Positions 39,455 to 50,809 of a stretch of DNA of 64,000 bases are shown in pieces. This DNA comes from Promethearchaeota archaeon. GTDB lineage: Archaea; Asgardarchaeota; Lokiarchaeia; Sigyniarchaeales; SOKP01. The notes beneath the pieces were generated by a model. The model was not told the DNA's origin. It did not search any database and saw only the letters and a program-made list of their open reading frames with translations. Position numbers and translations under genes: made by a program. Numbering within the stretch: the stretch's first letter is position 1; every line of letters begins with the position of its first letter. The stretch spans positions 1 through 64,000 of the forward strand of contig JAFGOA010000071.1 in NCBI GenBank assembly GCA_016926735.1. Direction: 5' to 3'.

Positions 39455-40639
39455 CTAAATTGTATGTATTTCAACAATATCCTTATCCTCTAAATCATAA
39501 TCTAATCCAACCTTCTTTCTCTTTTGTCTGGCATTTTTTCTTATAACAACTGCAAAATCAAATAATTCTAAAAAGGTTCTATGAATTTTGTAAGCAACAT
39601 CTCTAATTTTAGCTTCTTTATTCAAGATTAAAGGTTTTTCAGCAACTTTACCAGAATTCATAGTATAAATTCTTATTTTTTCTAAAAGATTTAAAACCAG
39701 TTCTCCAAAATCTGAAGGAAAATTCTTTCTTACAACACTTGAAGCTATTATTTTAAATTTTTTAGAATATTTTTTTTTCAATATTTCGAAATTATCTTCT
39801 GTATGCGGAAGATCTCCTTTTGTACCAATAATTATTGCTTTTCTATATACTATAGAATGATTTAAACAATCTACTATTTGCTCTAAGTTTATTCTACCAT
39901 ATATTTTTACAATGCAATTATGAATACCATTTACTCTAATAATTTGTTTAATTTTATCTGATAATTCCATACTTTCTTTAGATTCTTTTGTTAAAAATAA
40001 GATTTGAATATTATTTGATCCCGTTTTTTCGATATCTATTGAAGGAGGACATTCATTAATTTTAATATCACCATTACTTAATTCATCAAATAATAAATCA
40101 AGTTGTTCATTAATATCCCTCGATAAATCTACGCAAATAGCAATAAGATCACATGAACGAATTTGTGCAATTATCTCTTTTCCATTTCCTACACCTTTAT
40201 ATGCATTCCTCATAATAGAAGGCATGTCAACTATTTGAAATCTAATCTTTTCATAATTTAATATCCCTATTTCTGGTAATGCATTAAAACTACCGATTTT
40301 TGTTTTTGCGGCATTTGTTAAATAATTAAGAAGTGAGGTTTTTCCTACACCAGGAATATGATAATCACTTATTAGAATAATTTGAATACCCTCTTTCTTA
40401 ATTGAAAAAGGACTAACAACTTTACTTATAGATTTTTGTTTTTTTTCCTCTAATTGCCTTTTAAGCTTCGCTAGTTTAGATTTATTCTGAGCAACAATGT
40501 TTTCGGTGGCTTTATGTTTTGGGACAATAGATAGAAATTCTTCGAGTCTTTTTATTTGCTCCTCTATTGTTCCAGCATCTAAATATTTTTGATATGCTGC
40601 TTGAGCTTCAGGTCCTATATTAGAAGACAAAATAATCAC
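39455..40639 (-). CDS. DRG/Rbg-like OBG-family GTPase with TGS domain (degenerate G motifs)
   Basis: 'PKHKATE..KSKLAKLK', 'GVGKTSLL', 'TKGD' and C-terminal TGS 'IH..KVGLDY.LEDKDIVEI'. Confidence 0.85.
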   Translation of the reverse strand: MIILSSNIGPEAQAAYQKYLDAGTIEEQIKRLEEFLSIVPKHKATENIVAQNKSKLAKLKRQLEEKKQKSISKVVSPFSIKKEGIQIILISDYHIPGVGKTSLLNYLTNAAKTKIGSFNALPEIGILNYEKIRFQIVDMPSIMRNAYKGVGNGKEIIAQIRSCDLIAICVDLSRDINEQLDLLFDELSNGDIKINECPPSIDIEKTGSNNIQILFLTKESKESMELSDKIKQIIRVNGIHNCIVKIYGRINLEQIVDCLNHSIVYRKAIIIGTKGDLPHTEDNFEILKKKYSKKFKIIASSVVRKNFPSDFGELVLNLLEKIRIYTMNSGKVAEKPLILNKEAKIRDVAYKIHRTFLELFDFAVVIRKNARQKRKKVGLDYDLEDKDIVEIHTI

Positions 40640-40650
40640 TCTTTAGATCT

Positions 40651-41112
40651 CTAAAAGATTGATCTAAATCGATCCTCTGTTTTAAGTTTTAAATCTCCTA
40701 AAATATTATCAATTCTTTCTATAAATTTTTTTTCAAAAAATTTCTTTTTTTTAGAAAAAATATCATTGATAGAAAACCGATTTAGAAAATGTTTATTAAT
40801 TTCTATTAGATGTTTTTTAACTACGTCTGTATCTGTTTCTTTTTCAATAATTGCATAATATAGTAATGGTTGTTTATTATTATCAGTATTAGCAAGAGGT
40901 AAAGAGACGATTTCAGAATAACATACTAATTTAAATGACGCTAATGAAACAACATTTATATCATCACCAAAAACTTCAGATGTAAAACTTTCTAAAGCAG
41001 AAAGAAATCCAGCTCTTAGATCTGGATCTAATGGATTATCTGAAGCAGAATAATATTGAATTTCAAAAATATTTCTATTTCCAAGGTTAATTCCTATTTC
41101 AAGAACAGCCAT
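40651..41112 (-). CDS. Longin-like domain protein
   Basis: 'LEIGI..', 'LRAGFLSALESFTSEVF', 'F..RF..F..RIDNILGDL'; 11 bp from the GTPase gene. Confidence 0.6.
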   Translation of the reverse strand: MAVLEIGINLGNRNIFEIQYYSASDNPLDPDLRAGFLSALESFTSEVFGDDINVVSLASFKLVCYSEIVSLPLANTDNNKQPLLYYAIIEKETDTDVVKKHLIEINKHFLNRFSINDIFSKKKKFFEKKFIERIDNILGDLKLKTEDRFRSIF

Positions 41113-42089: not shown

Positions 42090-43217
42090 TCAGATTTGTC
42101 TCCGTTTCCATAAAAAGAATATTAAACCAGCAGTAAATCCAATTGCTACTAAAATGCCTAAAAGAACATACCAATTAAATTCTACAAGGCCAATTTCACT
42201 ATTCAATGAATCAAGAGCATTTAAAATTTTTAGAGTTTGATAGGCATTATAGGACGTACTCATAGAAGAATTTTGACTTCCAATCCCAGTAGAAGGATCC
42301 GAAAATCCACCATCAAGTGTGTTTTGGCGATCTAAAATCCAATTAATTGTTGTAAGTCTATCATTATATTCACTTCCAGATACCATTGAGATAATTTTGA
42401 TATTATAATAGGTGCTCCAAATTACTGTTTGAGTTAAAGAAGTATCTGGTTTATACCCACCATTAGAAAGATAAAAACTCTTAGCATATTGAATTATTTT
42501 CTCTTTAGTCGTAGAAGTTAAATTATTAAAACTATCTAAGCTATTAAGAGCAAGAACGGCATAATTTGTTGATGATATTGACGATACTGCAGTAGAATTT
42601 CCTCCAAATCCTCCATCAGTATTATTACAAGTCAATAACCAATTTATATGACTAAGTGCATTGTTCATTTCTTGATTAATTATCTCATAACATTTAATGC
42701 CTAGGAACGTAGATATTACAATCGGATATGAACTTGTATTTGTCATTGAAAACCCACCTGTGATGAGATTTGTCTGGTTAAGATAATTGATAATTTTTCC
42801 ATTTAAACTACTGTTAGAAATGATTATATTATTAATTTGTCCTAAAGTATTGATTGAACTTAATAGATAATATAAATCATATAAATCCATGGCATCATCA
42901 TCAATCTTATAATCTATTATACTTCCAAATAATTCAGATAGTTCTATAGAATCTACATAATAATTAATTTCATTAAAGTCTTTCAATATCTCTAATGCAT
43001 AAAAAGTTGCATCATAGGAGAGAGGACCATCAACTGAATTTGAAAATCCTTCAGAATCTGAGATTCTATTGCTTGAGATAAAATCTATCAAATAATTGCT
43101 CCTTGATTTTGCTAATGATAAAGGGGTAATTATTAAAAATGATAATAATACGAAGCATATTATCAATTTTTTAGTATGTTTCGTTTTCAATCTTGTACAA
43201 CTTAATTTATCTTTCAA
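42090..43217 (-). CDS. Secreted, C-terminally anchored prenyltransferase-beta-like alpha/alpha toroid protein
   Basis: Signal peptide; repeated 'DGGF' units (ITGGFS, TDGGFG, SNGGY, LDGGFS); C-terminal TM followed by 'WKRRQI'. Confidence 0.7.
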   Translation of the reverse strand: MKDKLSCTRLKTKHTKKLIICFVLLSFLIITPLSLAKSRSNYLIDFISSNRISDSEGFSNSVDGPLSYDATFYALEILKDFNEINYYVDSIELSELFGSIIDYKIDDDAMDLYDLYYLLSSINTLGQINNIIISNSSLNGKIINYLNQTNLITGGFSMTNTSSYPIVISTFLGIKCYEIINQEMNNALSHINWLLTCNNTDGGFGGNSTAVSSISSTNYAVLALNSLDSFNNLTSTTKEKIIQYAKSFYLSNGGYKPDTSLTQTVIWSTYYNIKIISMVSGSEYNDRLTTINWILDRQNTLDGGFSDPSTGIGSQNSSMSTSYNAYQTLKILNALDSLNSEIGLVEFNWYVLLGILVAIGFTAGLIFFLWKRRQI

Positions 43218-43553
43218 AAATTAATCTTTTTAAATTTAGCTTTTAATTAAAAATTAACTAATAAATCAAAAAAATGACCATTAATTGGGTTTTCAATAAT
43301 ATTAAAATTCAAATAAATTTGAATTAATATTATATAATTCCTCTTATGGCTCTAAATTATTATTTCACTTGGTATTGGTTAGAAGTTCTTCATTGATTAA
43401 GAATAAATTAAAATTTTATCAATTTCTATTATTATAAAAATACAATTTTTATTATTTGTTTATTTAAAAATCAAGGAAGTACAGGTATAAAAGAAAATAG
43501 GAAGATATAAAGAATTATTCAATAGAATTAATATAACATATAAAAGATCAGAA

Positions 43554-45092
43554 TTAATAATTACCAAAAATCTGCGAGATATCAGTATGTAGGATTTCTT
43601 TATTTAATTCAAATTGTTCCTTTGTAACAAATAAATTCCTAAATGAGGGCAAACTTCCCAATATTGTCGCACCATTATAGATAGCTAATTGAAGATTATT
43701 GGGTATAAAGAATTTTATTCCACTTTTAGAAGAATCCGTATATTCACTAAAACCTATACTTTTTACTGTTTCTTCTTTTGCTTTTTGAATTTCATTCATC
43801 GGGATTTTTAATGCTTCAGTTTTTAAATTATTACCACAAAAAGGACAAAATACTGATTCTTTATCCTTTATTTCTTTTTTACATTTTGAACAAGTAATAA
43901 TATTACTTATTTTATCTTGTGATATGTCTATTTGAATTGTTGGCATCTCCATATTTGCACCACATTGAGGACAATTTTTAATTCCACCTGATAAGCTGAC
44001 TAATGTACCACATTGTGGACAAGTATCATTTTCTTTTTTATTTCCCTCAATTGGCTTTAATTCTTCAATTTTCTCATTTTTTTTACTGTTCTTCCCTTTA
44101 TTTTTAATAGATATACCATATTGAGGTAATAATATATTTAATTCTGCTCTTAATCTTTCTTCAAAACCACTATGCGAAAGGTTACCTCCAGAAAGTACAA
44201 TGTGAGATAAAAGAACATCCCAATATTCTTGATCAACATTCTGTAGACAGCTAATAACAGCATGTTGAATTCCAGGAGAGTTTGAACCTATCATAGAAGG
44301 AGTAAATAGTACTTCTGTTGAATTATAGAGGATATGATCAGGTATTTGTACTTTAGAACCATCAGGCATATTATATTCGATACTTTCCCCTGTTTTTGCA
44401 GGATTATTTGGATCAATTGTAAAATAACAATTCTTTTCTTTTATTTCTTTTATTATTTCTTCTACAGCAGAAGATGAAATATTTATACCTTCTCTCATTA
44501 ATAGTGTTTTAAGATTATTGCTTACATCCATACCTGCTAAATTTAATCGCTGTACAGCTTGTAAAAGGATTTGCCCGTTAATTATGGGTACAATCCATGT
44601 TAATCCATCACCACTTTCAATAACTAAACCAGTAGTAAGACCTACAGAGAAACATGAAAGAATTGGAGAAGGCACCATTAATAAATTATGAATTTGATGG
44701 GTTTCAAAAAGCACTCTTGCAATAAATTCTTTTATATCTTTTGATTGGAAAGGATCTTCAATATAAATAATTGGATAATCTAAAGGATTTTGAATTCTAA
44801 GTAGAGTATATAAAATATGATTTAAAATTTGATAATAGCTATCCCAATCCACAATTGACCCACGCTGTATTGGATGAGAAATTTTTAGAACACCTCTCAT
44901 TTTCATTGCATCTTGTCCTATATACACATTTCTTGCATCAACATCAACCATTACTGAGTGATATTTTTCAGTTCCAGTTATACAAGGAAAAATGTATCGA
45001 GGATTTACTTCTCCAGCAAATCCCACTTTAACATAAGCAGATCCAATATCAATGATGATTGGAGTCCCTGGTGTTGGTAATGACATTTTCAT
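43554..45092 (-). CDS. Actin-related protein (Asgard actin family) with double zinc-ribbon insertion
   Basis: 'IIIDIGSAYVKVGFAGE..PR..FP', 'TTGLVIESGDGLT..VPI', 'RLNLAG', 'EIKEKNCY', 'IVLSGG', 'GATILGSLPSF..FVTKEQF'. Confidence 0.93.
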   Translation of the reverse strand: MKMSLPTPGTPIIIDIGSAYVKVGFAGEVNPRYIFPCITGTEKYHSVMVDVDARNVYIGQDAMKMRGVLKISHPIQRGSIVDWDSYYQILNHILYTLLRIQNPLDYPIIYIEDPFQSKDIKEFIARVLFETHQIHNLLMVPSPILSCFSVGLTTGLVIESGDGLTWIVPIINGQILLQAVQRLNLAGMDVSNNLKTLLMREGINISSSAVEEIIKEIKEKNCYFTIDPNNPAKTGESIEYNMPDGSKVQIPDHILYNSTEVLFTPSMIGSNSPGIQHAVISCLQNVDQEYWDVLLSHIVLSGGNLSHSGFEERLRAELNILLPQYGISIKNKGKNSKKNEKIEELKPIEGNKKENDTCPQCGTLVSLSGGIKNCPQCGANMEMPTIQIDISQDKISNIITCSKCKKEIKDKESVFCPFCGNNLKTEALKIPMNEIQKAKEETVKSIGFSEYTDSSKSGIKFFIPNNLQLAIYNGATILGSLPSFRNLFVTKEQFELNKEILHTDISQIFGNY

Positions 45093-45720: not shown

Positions 45721-46170
45721 TCAATAAAGTTTTTTTAACTTTTGTTCTAATTTTTTTTCAAGAATAAAAACTTCTTCAATCATATTTTTATAGAGAGCTA
45801 ATAGAGATTTTCCCCATTCATTTAATTCTACAGTACCTCCACCCCCAACACCACCTTTGTGTGTAATAACGGGAGATAAACCGGTACGATTTTCAATTCT
45901 TTTTAATATATTCCAAGAATATTTATAAGAATAATTACATTTTTCAGCAGCTTTAGATAAAGATTTGATTTCATCTTTTTCTATTGCTTCTAATAAATTT
46001 GCCCATCCTTTACCCAATATACTAATATCTTCAAACTTTAACCAAAATTTTAAACCAAAATTTATTTTCTTTTTTAGTTCTAATATATTTTGGGGATTAT
46101 TCATGTTAATCATAAAAACAGATAATTGATATAAATTATTAATTTTACTATAAACATCACTTAAAATCAA
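45721..46170 (-). CDS. ModE-like winged-helix regulator
   Basis: 'LG.G..LLEAI..SLSKAA...YSYKYSW..L..IE..KGG.GGGG..L..G'. Confidence 0.88.
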   Translation of the reverse strand: MILSDVYSKINNLYQLSVFMINMNNPQNILELKKKINFGLKFWLKFEDISILGKGWANLLEAIEKDEIKSLSKAAEKCNYSYKYSWNILKRIENRTGLSPVITHKGGVGGGGTVELNEWGKSLLALYKNMIEEVFILEKKLEQKLKKLY

Positions 46171-47265: not shown

Positions 47266-47922
47266 ATGTCTAATGAAAAAAAAGTAGACGAAGTATATTT
47301 AAGAAATTATCCTAAAGTAATCTTCTTTTGGCCAGTATTCTTCACTTCTTTTATATTGTGGATTATACAATGGGTAATAGGAGATATACCAAATAATATT
47401 TTGGGATATTTTTGGGCAGCAATGTTCTTCATCAATATTTTTGTTGTTGCTTTTGATTTTTCATCAACAAAGTTCTTTATTCTTGTGTTAGTTATTGTAA
47501 TAGCTTTGGTAATTATAATTATATGGCTTTTACCTAACATAGAAATACACCCAGGTGTTGAATTCAATTTAGGTTTAACTTGGCAATTCTATCTTACAAT
47601 GACTTTAATGTTAGGTCTACCTTTAGGAATGGTTGTTTTAAATGCCTATTTTAGTTATTATAAAGTTGAGAGAAATGAAATATACCATAAAAGTGGAATC
47701 TTTAGTTCTGCTGAAAGATTTCCGGTATCTAATTTAAGAATAAAGAAATCGATCCCAGATGTTTTTGAATTCTTATTTTTACGTGCTGGATCAATGGTGT
47801 TAATCCCGGGTAGATCAGAGGATGTAATAAACTTACCTACAGTACTAAATATAAATAAAAAAGCAAAAAGGATTGATGATCTCTTAAGTCATGTTTCTGT
47901 AGAACCGGATGAAGTTGATTAA
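47266..47922 (+). CDS. Membrane protein (4 TM) with C-terminal bPH-like domain
   Basis: Four TMs, then 'IYHKSGIFSS..FP...I..FLFL.AGS'. Confidence 0.6.
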   Translation: MSNEKKVDEVYLRNYPKVIFFWPVFFTSFILWIIQWVIGDIPNNILGYFWAAMFFINIFVVAFDFSSTKFFILVLVIVIALVIIIIWLLPNIEIHPGVEFNLGLTWQFYLTMTLMLGLPLGMVVLNAYFSYYKVERNEIYHKSGIFSSAERFPVSNLRIKKSIPDVFEFLFLRAGSMVLIPGRSEDVINLPTVLNINKKAKRIDDLLSHVSVEPDEVD

Positions 47923-48004: not shown

Positions 48005-50809
48005 TTGCACGCAAAATTCTTATTGAATTTACAATTAAATTATAAAAAGGTTAATATGATAAATATGTTTAATATTGAAGATTTTCAAAACTACTCAATA
48101 ATCATCCCAATTATAAAAAAAATTAATAAATATTTAGAAAAAGGAAAACATTCAAATATTTCCCCTCAAATTGAAGAATTAAAAAGGTATTTAGATCATG
48201 ATACTTTAAGCGTACCTATTACATATATATTTAGTGTATTAGCTGAGAATTATCCAGAGTTATTTAATCTTGAGCTTATTGATAAAATTGAACCTTTAGT
48301 CTATTCTGACAATATAAAATTAAAATTAAATTCGATATCAATTTTGGGTTTCTTTATTTTAAATAATCCTGAGCTTATAGATATAAAATATTTCTCTTTA
48401 TTCACTAAATTACTCAATACCGAAAAGAAAGATATAAGAGAGAATTGCTATTATTTTCTACAGAGGATGTTCAATATTGATCAAAGAAAATTATTAAAAT
48501 TTATGGATAATTTACTTGAAGCTTTAGAATTAGAAATATTGGACTCAAAGTTAGAAGATATAATTATTATTCTTAATTTTATTCAGAATTGTGATAATTT
48601 TAATTTCAAACAACTATATACATTAAGAAAATTATCGAAATCAATTATTACAGAGATTTATGACGATTCAGATTCAGATCTTAAATCAATTCTGAATAAT
48701 CTTTTAAAAAATAAATATCAAGAGTTAATAGGAGTAAATTTTGAAGATATCAATAATAATGATCTATTATCATTGATAAACAAAACATTTATCCAATTAA
48801 AATATGAATTTAACAATGATTTGAAGAAAGAAAAACAGATTGAATTCAAAGATTATTTGAAAAAATTTAAAAAAAATGTTCTTAAAGAAAAAGAGATATA
48901 CTTTTATTTTAAAGATCAAGAAAAGCAGAATATTTATCTTTTTGAACTAGAGAAAGAAAAAACAATTGATTTCTTCAATCAAAATTGTAAATTATCATAT
49001 CAAGAGATTATTAATCAATTCCAAAAGGTTTTAGATGATTCAAATCTCCAATTATTTGTAAAAATGCTATTAAAATTAAAGCATATTAGTGGTTTTCTTT
49101 CAGAATTTAATTTCTATCCTTCAAACTATATTATTACTGAATTAACTAATTCTCTAAAAGAAGTTGGATATATTGAATTGGATAATTATAATTATTTACC
49201 AATAGATTTTATTATAGAGAATATTAAGAAAATCTCAAATGAGGCAAACTATAAAATACTTGTTGGAAAAGAAAAAAAAACATTTCATGTACTTTCGAAA
49301 ATTACAGAAAAAATTAGGGAAATAGCAGCTAAAGAAACATGTATTAATTTAAAGACATATCGAGACCAATTTACTGAAAAGTCATTTGTAAAAATTATAA
49401 AATCTCTACCAAAAGATTATTTAACAAGCTATCATAAAGGTTCAAGCTGGCTTACAAATATTGGAAAGTATAAATTTCTTAAAGAGCTAGAAAATTCTAA
49501 GATAATAGGATTTTTCGATATTGAGAAAATAAAAGAAAAGCTAGATATAACTGAAGATTTAATTCGAGAAATTTTTAATAATGAAATAGATATACGTAGT
49601 GGAGTATGGAATAAATCGCAAGATATCTTTTATTATTCAAAATATATAAAACAAAAGGTTGAAGATATAAATCAAATTAAAGATCCTCAAGAAAGAGTAG
49701 ATAGAATAAATAAATTATCAAGAGATCTTAACATAGAAAAGGAAAAAATTATTGGTAAAATTGATGAGAATATAGAATTAATCGGAGAAGAAATAAAGAA
49801 TCAAGATCAAATCCGTATTCCAGAATATATAGAAAAACTAGGTATGGATTATAATGATTTTATGCATTATATTGATAGTTTGGGCTTAAATTATCTAAAA
49901 AGAGCTGATTTTCTCATATTCAATCCTTTAAAAATTGAAAATGCTAAAAAAGAGATAACACAATTAATTAAAAGAGACATTCAAACATTAGATTTTATTT
50001 CTTTGGATAATTACGATATGAATTCTACAATTATAAAAGAAATCTTAAAAGAATTACAGAATATAGAAGAATTTAAAGGAATAGTATACGAAATGGAAAA
50101 TGAAAAAAAGTTCTATACCCAAATAGGATTGAAAAATATGATGCTCTCAAACATATTTCTATTTTCTTTCCACGATTTCTTTTATGGTAAAACATTAGAT
50201 GATAATGAAATATCAATCCTTTTAAACCTTTTTTATGACCTTAATAAACAAGGAAGATTAAAGGGAACATTTAATAAAGCAACATTAACCTTTTCTAGCG
50301 ATGAAATCGTATTTGCAAAAGATTATAACAGTAATTTAGATCAATTCAGATTCATGGTTGATAATTATATTAAAAAGTTTAATTCTGAATTTAAGAAAAT
50401 TAAACCCATTTTAAATAAAGAAACAGCTATAATTCCACAAGAAATAAAATTAATACAGGATGCTATTCTAAGAATAAATGAGAATTATATATTTTGGAAA
50501 AGTAAATTAGATGCATATATAACAAGAGTACATAAAAAATTATTAGAAGATCAGGGTATTTCTTTGAAAAAGTTTAATTCTGTGTCATATACTGGAATGG
50601 ATAAGAAAGATATAAAATCATTTGCAGATGATATTGAAGTTAAAGAATTAATGGATAAATTCAACTATTGGATAAGTCTTTTCAATAAATTAGAATTGAA
50701 ATATCAAAATGTAATATTCTATCAAAAAAGATATTTAAATAATCCAGATGATCAAGAATCTAATCAAAATTTACTAGAATTAAGAAAAGAATTAAATTTA
50801 ACACAGTAG
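48005..50809 (+). CDS. HEAT/ARM-repeat plus tandem PCI/winged-helix-like scaffold protein
   Basis: N-terminal HEAT-like units ('LLNTEKKDIRENC..L') and repeated 'G.....Y...I..EL...GYI.L' type units. Confidence 0.55.
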   Translation: MHAKFLLNLQLNYKKVNMINMFNIEDFQNYSIIIPIIKKINKYLEKGKHSNISPQIEELKRYLDHDTLSVPITYIFSVLAENYPELFNLELIDKIEPLVYSDNIKLKLNSISILGFFILNNPELIDIKYFSLFTKLLNTEKKDIRENCYYFLQRMFNIDQRKLLKFMDNLLEALELEILDSKLEDIIIILNFIQNCDNFNFKQLYTLRKLSKSIITEIYDDSDSDLKSILNNLLKNKYQELIGVNFEDINNNDLLSLINKTFIQLKYEFNNDLKKEKQIEFKDYLKKFKKNVLKEKEIYFYFKDQEKQNIYLFELEKEKTIDFFNQNCKLSYQEIINQFQKVLDDSNLQLFVKMLLKLKHISGFLSEFNFYPSNYIITELTNSLKEVGYIELDNYNYLPIDFIIENIKKISNEANYKILVGKEKKTFHVLSKITEKIREIAAKETCINLKTYRDQFTEKSFVKIIKSLPKDYLTSYHKGSSWLTNIGKYKFLKELENSKIIGFFDIEKIKEKLDITEDLIREIFNNEIDIRSGVWNKSQDIFYYSKYIKQKVEDINQIKDPQERVDRINKLSRDLNIEKEKIIGKIDENIELIGEEIKNQDQIRIPEYIEKLGMDYNDFMHYIDSLGLNYLKRADFLIFNPLKIENAKKEITQLIKRDIQTLDFISLDNYDMNSTIIKEILKELQNIEEFKGIVYEMENEKKFYTQIGLKNMMLSNIFLFSFHDFFYGKTLDDNEISILLNLFYDLNKQGRLKGTFNKATLTFSSDEIVFAKDYNSNLDQFRFMVDNYIKKFNSEFKKIKPILNKETAIIPQEIKLIQDAILRINENYIFWKSKLDAYITRVHKKLLEDQGISLKKFNSVSYTGMDKKDIKSFADDIEVKELMDKFNYWISLFNKLELKYQNVIFYQKRYLNNPDDQESNQNLLELRKELNLTQ

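Follow-up and report, generated by a model that had tools for sequence, protein, structure and literature searches.

To our knowledge, the components of the Asgard archaeal actin system that have been characterised are Lokiactin, profilins and gelsolins, while additional Asgard actin-related proteins (ARPs) have only been counted and placed in trees. One such ARP, here termed ARPZn, is encoded in a 64,000-nucleotide stretch of DNA from a Promethearchaeota archaeon (assembly GCA_016926735.1, contig JAFGOA010000071.1, positions 1 to 64,000 of the forward strand; GTDB lineage Asgardarchaeota, Lokiarchaeia, Sigyniarchaeales, SOKP01), and this whole stretch is referred to as the window. ARPZn represents a conserved, lineage-specific family of Asgard ARPs that is distinct from filament-forming Lokiactin and is marked by an altered ATPase site and by an insert with two predicted zinc ribbons. 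Members occur in databases and one appears in a published tree, but the family is uncharacterised.

The orthologue of Candidatus (Ca.) Lokiarchaeum ossiferum (locus L081) is exactly UYP44711.1, a protein of 499 amino acids that is 39% identical to ARPZn. It was placed by Rodrigues-Oliveira et al. (2022; PMC9834061), as one of three non-Lokiactin homologues, in an unnamed group among 'Asgard archaeal and eukaryotic ARPs'. Reverse-transcription quantitative PCR in Ca. L. ossiferum found all four actin homologues transcribed, with Lokiactin severalfold higher (PMC9834061), a pattern in keeping with regulatory, not bulk, functions of the other homologues. Neither the word 'zinc' nor a description of the insert occurs in the main text of PMC9834061, and no description of a zinc-ribbon ARP architecture was found in papers of the Creative Commons (CC)-licensed PMC set or bioRxiv, a scope that leaves aside supplementary tables of eukaryotic signature proteins (ESPs) and AsCOGs. 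UYP44711.1 shares with ARPZn its clade, insert site and downstream neighbour, but it has one zinc ribbon instead of two and keeps His161.

Eukaryotic Arp4 and Arp8 resemble ARPZn in having actin folds, altered catalytic residues and loop insertions (PMC3510490). According to the same source, Arp4 has Thr at the position of actin Q137 and ATPase activity not above background, and Arp8, with Arg at H73 and Ser at H161, has low basal activity only. The small insertion V of Arp8 is located at the outer barbed end of subdomain 3, and is comparable with the insert of ARPZn by analogy; in Arp8 the large insertions lie over the pointed face and the plug, but ARPZn has its pointed face intact. The zinc-ribbon pair is a feature of ARPZn, and none is described for Arp8 in the sections of PMC3510490 drawn on here. 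A functional precedent for archaeal zinc ribbons as cytoskeletal adaptors, as proposed here for ARPZn, is CdpC of Haloferax volcanii, in which dual zinc ribbons of the CPxCG type bind FtsZ1 and anchor it to the membrane, with the Cys residues being essential (bioRxiv 10.64898/2026.07.16.738847). CdpC has no actin fold and acts on FtsZ rather than actin. Compared with Lokiactin and eukaryotic actin, ARPZn has the same fold, approximately 35% identity, the phosphate loops, the same lengths of D-loop and hydrophobic plug and the same layout of C-terminal helices, but differs in the replacement of Q137, H161, D154, H73 and R183, in its 131-residue two-ribbon insert and in its separate clade.

The open reading frame (ORF) of ARPZn encodes 512 amino acids if counted from the first ATG, but translation probably begins at Met3, at window position 45086, giving a product of 510 amino acids, because 121 of 126 relatives begin there and the database copy (P0002) has 510 amino acids. 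Residue equivalences were taken from HMMER and MAFFT alignments, and an AlphaFold2 (AF2) model, with predicted local distance difference test (pLDDT) scores, was built on 125 family sequences. The parts of the gene are as follows.

43554..45092, minus strand: whole ARPZn ORF (translation, Pfam and PDB alignments).
44115..45092, minus strand: N-terminal part of the actin core, residues 1-326 (Pfam Actin 10-333; PDB alignments 2-324).
44928..44972, minus strand: DNase I-binding loop (D-loop), residues 41-55, TEKYHSVMVDVDARN (ungapped against actin).
44667..44669, minus strand: Ser142, at the position of actin Gln137 (HMMER and MAFFT alignments).
44595..44597, minus strand: Trp166, at the position of actin His161 (HMMER and MAFFT alignments).
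43722..44114, minus strand: insert of about 131 amino acids, residues 327-457 (three low-confidence linkers and two predicted zinc ribbons).
43959..44021, minus strand: zinc ribbon 1, C358-PQCG ... C374-PQCG378 (Pfam DZR stretch 351-382).
43833..43892, minus strand: zinc ribbon 2, C401-SKC ... C416-PFCG420 (Pfam Zn_ribbon_3 and DUF7575 stretch 399-423).
43557..43721, minus strand: C-terminal part of the actin core, residues 458-512, in subdomains 3 and 1 (HMMER 457-502 against actin 326-372; pLDDT 91-96).

The Pfam family Actin (PF00022) matched ARPZn with 237.8 bits (cut-off 27; E 2.2e-70) in two segments, one on either side of the insert. The best match among all PDB sequences was 9wc4, 'HC1 actin' (2.8e-69, 237 bits), while eukaryotic actins scored 219-221 bits and Arp1 217 bits (~1e-63), so that Arp1 was no better a match than actin. 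These alignments covered query residues 2-324 and, after a gap, resumed at approximately 457. Scanning ARPZn against NCBIfam gave only far-sub-threshold matches (MamK, crenactin). As modelled, ARPZn has the four-subdomain actin fold: the mean pLDDT was 82.3, with the actin core mostly above 90, as were residues 1-326, which span subdomains 1, 2 and 4 and most of subdomain 3. Foldseek comparison of the model with actin structures gave E values of ~1e-35 and target-normalised template modelling (TM) scores of 0.88-0.92.

Four actin-family genes were found in the same genome, encoding a Lokiactin of 381 amino acids, a paralogue of 371, ARPZn and a divergent paralogue of 389. The Lokiactin scored 443 bits to PF00022 and has Gln137 and His161 intact. 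Quick maximum-likelihood trees of 65 and 64 rows were reconstructed with Shimodaira-Hasegawa-like approximate likelihood ratio test (SH-aLRT) support, with the insert columns removed by a fill filter; the rows included 23 insert-bearing proteins, nine Lokiactins and 30 unlabelled short representatives, with the named Arp2-Arp10 left out. A branch with SH-aLRT 100 separated all 23 sampled insert-bearing proteins from the remaining rows, and the nine Lokiactins were set apart in the same way. ARPZn evolves faster than Lokiactin, with 55-63% identity across genomes whose Lokiactins share 80-95%.

These results bear on an initial annotation of the window, made from the sequence, which had called the gene an actin paralogue with intact phosphate loops and a full-length D-loop and had proposed a phylogeny as a check. 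Membership of the actin family is borne out by the PF00022 match, the fold and the tree, in which ARPZn has its own clade (SH-aLRT 100) apart from Lokiactin. All of the motifs that had been quoted are present in the translation: D15-IGSAYVK22 (P1), E159-SGDG163 (P2), L300-SGG303 (adenosine loop S301-G303), K43-YHSVMVDVDAR54 of the D-loop, MVPSPI (139-144) and LTWIVP (164-169). The D-loop aligns with that of actin without gaps, in line with the full length that had been claimed. The annotation missed that ARPZn belongs to a large order-wide family with one member in print and a conserved membrane-protein neighbour.

A word-indexed database search identified 296 proteins at E <= 0.001 among 7,994 scored. 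The 120 matches listed of these 296 were 499-523 amino acids long with 96-100% query coverage and 55-100% identity, and in the precomputed Pfam column PF00022 is accompanied by one or more zinc-ribbon families in every one of the 120. When 50%-identity representatives were searched exhaustively with HMMER, a single one was close (619 bits) and a few were more remote (299-432 bits, with lengths of 486-576 amino acids); scores then dropped to the generic actin level of ~180-220 bits. The ESM Atlas contains two clusters, auto-named 'actin-related protein', with Actin and DZR domains and with 79 and 65 members.

A search with the insert alone gave matches at E <= 1e-5 in 150 of 400 genomes from the phylum; the window's own family accounts for 127 of these (out of 134 genomes) and a sister family for 10 (out of 14). 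Other matches of this query were sparse and near 1e-6, and were possibly to unrelated ribbons. The insert query undercounts, since all five same-order genomes that it missed contain a full-length orthologue when searched with a distant member (489-560 amino acids; E 1e-81 to 6e-205). The ARPZn family therefore looks order-wide and essentially confined to that order.

The public labels of matching metagenome-assembled genomes (MAGs) name several 'phyla', including bacterial and Bathyarchaeota names. Two loci with an Asgard-type gene block, L059 and L080, are labelled Nanopelagicaceae bacterium and Bathyarchaeota archaeon, and other records of near-identical synteny are labelled Hod-, Thor-, Hermod- or Odinarchaeota. 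Such labels look unreliable, or the contigs mis-binned. They were not relied on, because tallies by genome taxonomy put most of the matches in one family.

The insert had been claimed at about 43722-44115, with the ribbons CPQCG..CPQCG and CSKC..CPFCG, in a surface loop of the kind expanded in eukaryotic ARPs, and all three parts of this claim stand. Alignment to actin stops after query residues 324-326 (actin 322-325) and restarts at 457-459 (actin 326-328), leaving residues ~327-457, window 43722-44114, as an insertion of ~131 amino acids in a surface loop, and the CxxC pairs are C358-PQC361 with C374-PQC377 and C401-SKC404 with C416-PFC419. The Pfam scores of the ribbons were just under the cut-offs (Zn_ribbon_3, PF13248, 26.1 versus 27 bits; DZR, PF12773, 26.2 versus 27.3 bits). 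Among the 126 aligned relatives, Cys 358, 361, 374 and 377 are present in all 126 and Cys 401, 404, 416 and 419 in 124, and an insert with all eight Cys is found in 124 of 125 aligned members. This retention of the eight Cys (124-126 of 126) indicates that the ribbon motifs are not due to chance. From the sequences, both Cys4 ribbons are predicted to bind zinc, and the ribbons are under purifying selection.

Insert length varies in the family around a median of 130 (range 97-167). In the sampled clade, all 23 members carry an insert of 104-217 amino acids at an identical site, with one or two ribbons. The linkers at 333-351, 384-397 and 424-454 have pLDDT below 50 while the ribbons reach ~70-77, so that the ribbons look, in the model, like small folded modules on flexible tethers. 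A basic insert that binds membrane or nucleic acid was considered as a simple reading and rejected on the net charge of the insert, the family median of which is 0. In F-actin, residues 322-325 of subdomain 3 contact residues 243-245 in subdomain 4 of the adjacent subunit (figure legend in PMC7247010). This contact loop is interrupted in ARPZn, unlike in conventional actin, by the 131-residue insert directly after it.

The initial annotation also held that Q137 and H161, which drive ATP hydrolysis in F-actin, are replaced, and the alignments agree, with Ser142 for Q137 and Trp166 for H161. Beyond this, actin D154 corresponds to Glu159 and H73 to Arg77 in ARPZn, and R183 is also replaced. Q137, H161 and D154 are water-positioning residues for the attack on ATP, and His73 is a sensor residue. 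The nucleotide-binding residues are present and near-invariant in the family (D11, K18, the G-D-G of the P2 loop, K213, E214 and the GG of the adenosine loop). Among the 126 aligned relatives, the Q137 column contains Thr in 68, Ser in 53, Ala in five and Gln in none, while Trp166 is conserved in 120 and Arg77 in all 126. The wider clade sample shows Q137 replaced by Ser, Thr or Ala and H73 by Arg in 23 of 23 members each, and D154 by Glu in 22 of 23; D11, K18 and E214 are retained in 23 of 23 and K213 in 22 of 23. Position 161 is less uniform, with Trp in 12 of 12 members of the subclade to which ARPZn belongs, and T, F, Y, S, N or His in the 11 distant members. By alignment, then, the loss of Q137 and the change of H73 to Arg are clade-wide and Trp161 is confined to one subclade, which are new observations here. 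By analogy with Arp4 and Arp8, it is plausible that ARPZn is hydrolysis-impaired.

The two other non-Lokiactin paralogues of the same genome, on other contigs, are also without Gln137/His161, with Asp/Arg and Asp/Tyr at these positions (L002 1489-2604 (+) and L004 1456-2625 (-), respectively). Loss of Gln137/His161 is therefore common to all three ARP-like paralogues.

Gene order was compared across 80 related loci and the window (81). The gene next downstream of ARPZn encodes a protein referred to as PT.

42090..43217, minus strand: PT, 375 amino acids, a context gene (Pfam Prenyltrans, AF2, Foldseek).

PT is co-directional with ARPZn in this next-downstream position in 77 of the 81 loci. For two of the four exceptions the contig ends right after the ARPZn gene; the other two, L061 and L082, have other genes downstream. 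Of the seven most distant loci (35-39% identity), which for the most part preserve little of the surrounding gene order, six retain the pairing; by coordinates, so do four of five extra genomes of the same order. The gap between the two genes is usually ~150 bp (range 74-2244), for which reason a separate promoter for PT is likely. In the window the gap is 336 bp (43218-43553); this stretch is very AT-rich with no obvious ORF, and an Rfam scan of the whole window at gathering thresholds, including this gap, returned no matches.

PT matched Pfam Prenyltrans with 2.8e-21, and its AF2 model (pLDDT 91.5) shows an alpha/alpha toroid flanked by a hydrophobic helix at the N terminus and a transmembrane helix at the C terminus. 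The best Foldseek match was 6o60_B (2.1e-8; TM 0.72 by target), among the beta subunits of eukaryotic protein prenyltransferases. The protein ends in a conserved basic tail of 5-6 residues, W-[RK]-[RK]-R-R-I, and, judged from its two terminal helices and this tail, probably faces outward. Strong matches to a PT profile (E < 1e-40) were found only in the window's order, in 126 of 134, one of one, 13 of 14 and four of four genomes by family, with weak matches only outside it, so that the range of PT mirrors that of ARPZn. Upstream of ARPZn, a ModE-like winged-helix gene of 149 amino acids with a sub-threshold domain (45721-46170, minus strand) is present in 68 of the 81 loci and is kept in three of the seven most distant ones. 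Part of this synteny reflects shared ancestry, since FolD and other housekeeping genes form a family-conserved block.

Residue sets for the interfaces of ARPZn follow the F-actin literature and structures. On the pointed face, family conservation was 0.83 for the D-loop, 1.00 for 61-65 and 0.84 for 241-247, against an overall mean of 0.80; the D-loop, equal in length to that of eukaryotic actin, has K43 and Y44 in every family member and V47, M48, V49 and D50 each conserved to 90% or more. Interface conservation within the family is lowest for the subdomain-3 contact region 283-294 (0.60), followed by the W-loop (0.68). The Lokiactin consensus is matched at 17 of 36 positions in the pointed sets and at 139 of 375 overall (37%), while the lateral-contact stretch 110-115 has one identity in six. 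Partners of an actin system are encoded in the same genome, with one Lokiactin, two profilin matches and five gelsolin-domain matches.

On the anatomy of the protein, we tentatively propose, as the likeliest of the readings considered, that ARPZn holds ATP, ends filaments and uses its ribbons as tethered adaptors, which is a real possibility though we would not wager on it. ATP would be bound as a structural cofactor with slow or no turnover, and ARPZn would build no bulk filaments. Its pointed face (the D-loop and the subdomain-4 loop 241-247) would dock on the barbed end of Lokiactin or on a monomer, and the insert on its own barbed face would hinder or alter addition of the next subunit, such that filaments would be terminated, capped or anchored. 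The tethered ribbons would hold a partner, and the likeliest place of action would be the cell envelope because the conserved neighbour is a membrane protein. Arp11 of dynactin and CapZ act in the mode proposed here for ARPZn, binding one filament end and stopping subunit exchange. In dynactin, Arp11 sits at the pointed end of the Arp1 filament; for ARPZn the barbed end is proposed. The earlier suggestion of an ARP-like, probably hydrolysis-poor adaptor is a reasonable hypothesis, supported in part.

Several observations weigh against this capping proposal. Identities to the Lokiactin consensus were 15 of 50 on the barbed face and 11 of 35 in the lateral sets, so that the asymmetry between faces is a trend that is not significant by a rough binomial estimate. 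The hydrophobic cleft of the barbed face is highly conserved (0.98 for 143-148 and 0.89 for 345-355), for which reason that face probably also binds something. The hydrophobic plug has its normal length and, as the linkers are long and poorly ordered in the model, the ribbons could swing aside and polymerisation might still be possible. Slow hydrolysis might still be possible with Ser or Thr at position 137, and two of the 11 distant members, the Ca. L. ossiferum orthologue among them, retain His161, so that hydrolysis loss may not span the whole clade. The link to PT comes from gene order, with a usual gap of ~150 bp that is unlike a tight operon, and the cytoplasmic tail of PT is only 5-6 residues long.

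The conserved cleft, the normal plug and the full-length, highly conserved D-loop would also suit a protein that forms its own slow- or non-hydrolysing polymer, alone or mixed with Lokiactin, with ribbons that decorate the filament surface; linkers of such length and low order might allow the ribbons to move out of the contact site. Such a polymer is unlikely, given that the insert sits in the loop that makes a longitudinal F-actin contact (legend in PMC7247010), that 283-294 and the W-loop are the least conserved parts of the interface, that the lateral stretch 110-115 differs from Lokiactin, and that transcript levels of the Ca. L. ossiferum orthologue are well under those of Lokiactin (PMC9834061). 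The active-site pattern, which resembles those reported for Arp4 (Thr137) and Arp8 (Arg73 and a non-His161 residue) in PMC3510490, is consistent with a non-cytoskeletal scaffold of the Arp4/Arp8 type, a monomeric, ATP-locked subunit whose ribbons bind nucleic acid or a non-actin partner. Zinc ribbons are often nucleic-acid binders, and the winged-helix ModE-like gene upstream points the same way. This role is nevertheless distinctly unlikely: the insert is without net basic charge, the D-loop face that nuclear ARPs cover or lose is intact and conserved in ARPZn, and no helicase or remodeller partner was identified, the nearby DEAD-box helicase being on the opposite strand and several genes off.

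A further alternative is that ARPZn acts as a nucleator like Arp2/Arp3, its barbed face serving as a template, alone or as a ribbon-held dimer, from which Lokiactin filaments start at their pointed ends. In the case of Arp2/3, subunits of the daughter filament dock on the Arp barbed ends (PMC9295785). The hydrophobic cleft of ARPZn is conserved, and the family is conserved alongside profilin and gelsolin genes. Against this, templating would need the very face that bears the insert and the most variable surface (283-294, W-loop). Q137 and H161, which are kept in Arp2 and Arp3, are also lost in ARPZn, and nucleation appears improbable overall.

The capping proposal has an extension in which ARPZn and PT together form an order-specific transmembrane coupler, with ARPZn capping Lokiactin filament ends and linking these to the membrane, where its ribbons would hold the short basic tail of a surface-exposed PT. 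We consider this coupler a long shot. If true, it would be an archaeal counterpart of adhesion-to-actin coupling, and would bear on the building of actin-filled protrusions and on the crawling reported for these cells. At the level of architecture, one Asgard order has made a specialised ARP in the eukaryotic style, in which the fold is kept, the ATPase site is altered and a module is added in a surface loop. The zinc-ribbon pair as an ARP module, for which the papers searched gave no description, is placed in a filament-contact loop. With strong conservation, a cultivated representative (UYP44711.1) and a fixed membrane neighbour, experiments on filament ends and membrane attachment are feasible in a prokaryote.

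Other genes of the window are conserved around ARPZn to a lesser extent. On the minus strand, a protein of 153 amino acids with no Pfam or NCBIfam match (40651-41112) is conserved in 61 of the 81 loci, and directly downstream of its gene, in 56 of 81 loci, is that of a GTPase with MMR_HSR1 and TGS domains (39455-40639); the two may be a functional pair. On the plus strand, genes for a probable membrane protein of 218 amino acids (47266-47922; 59 of 81 loci) and for a protein of 934 amino acids (48005-50809; 53 of 81 loci), neither with a match in Pfam or NCBIfam, are also conserved.

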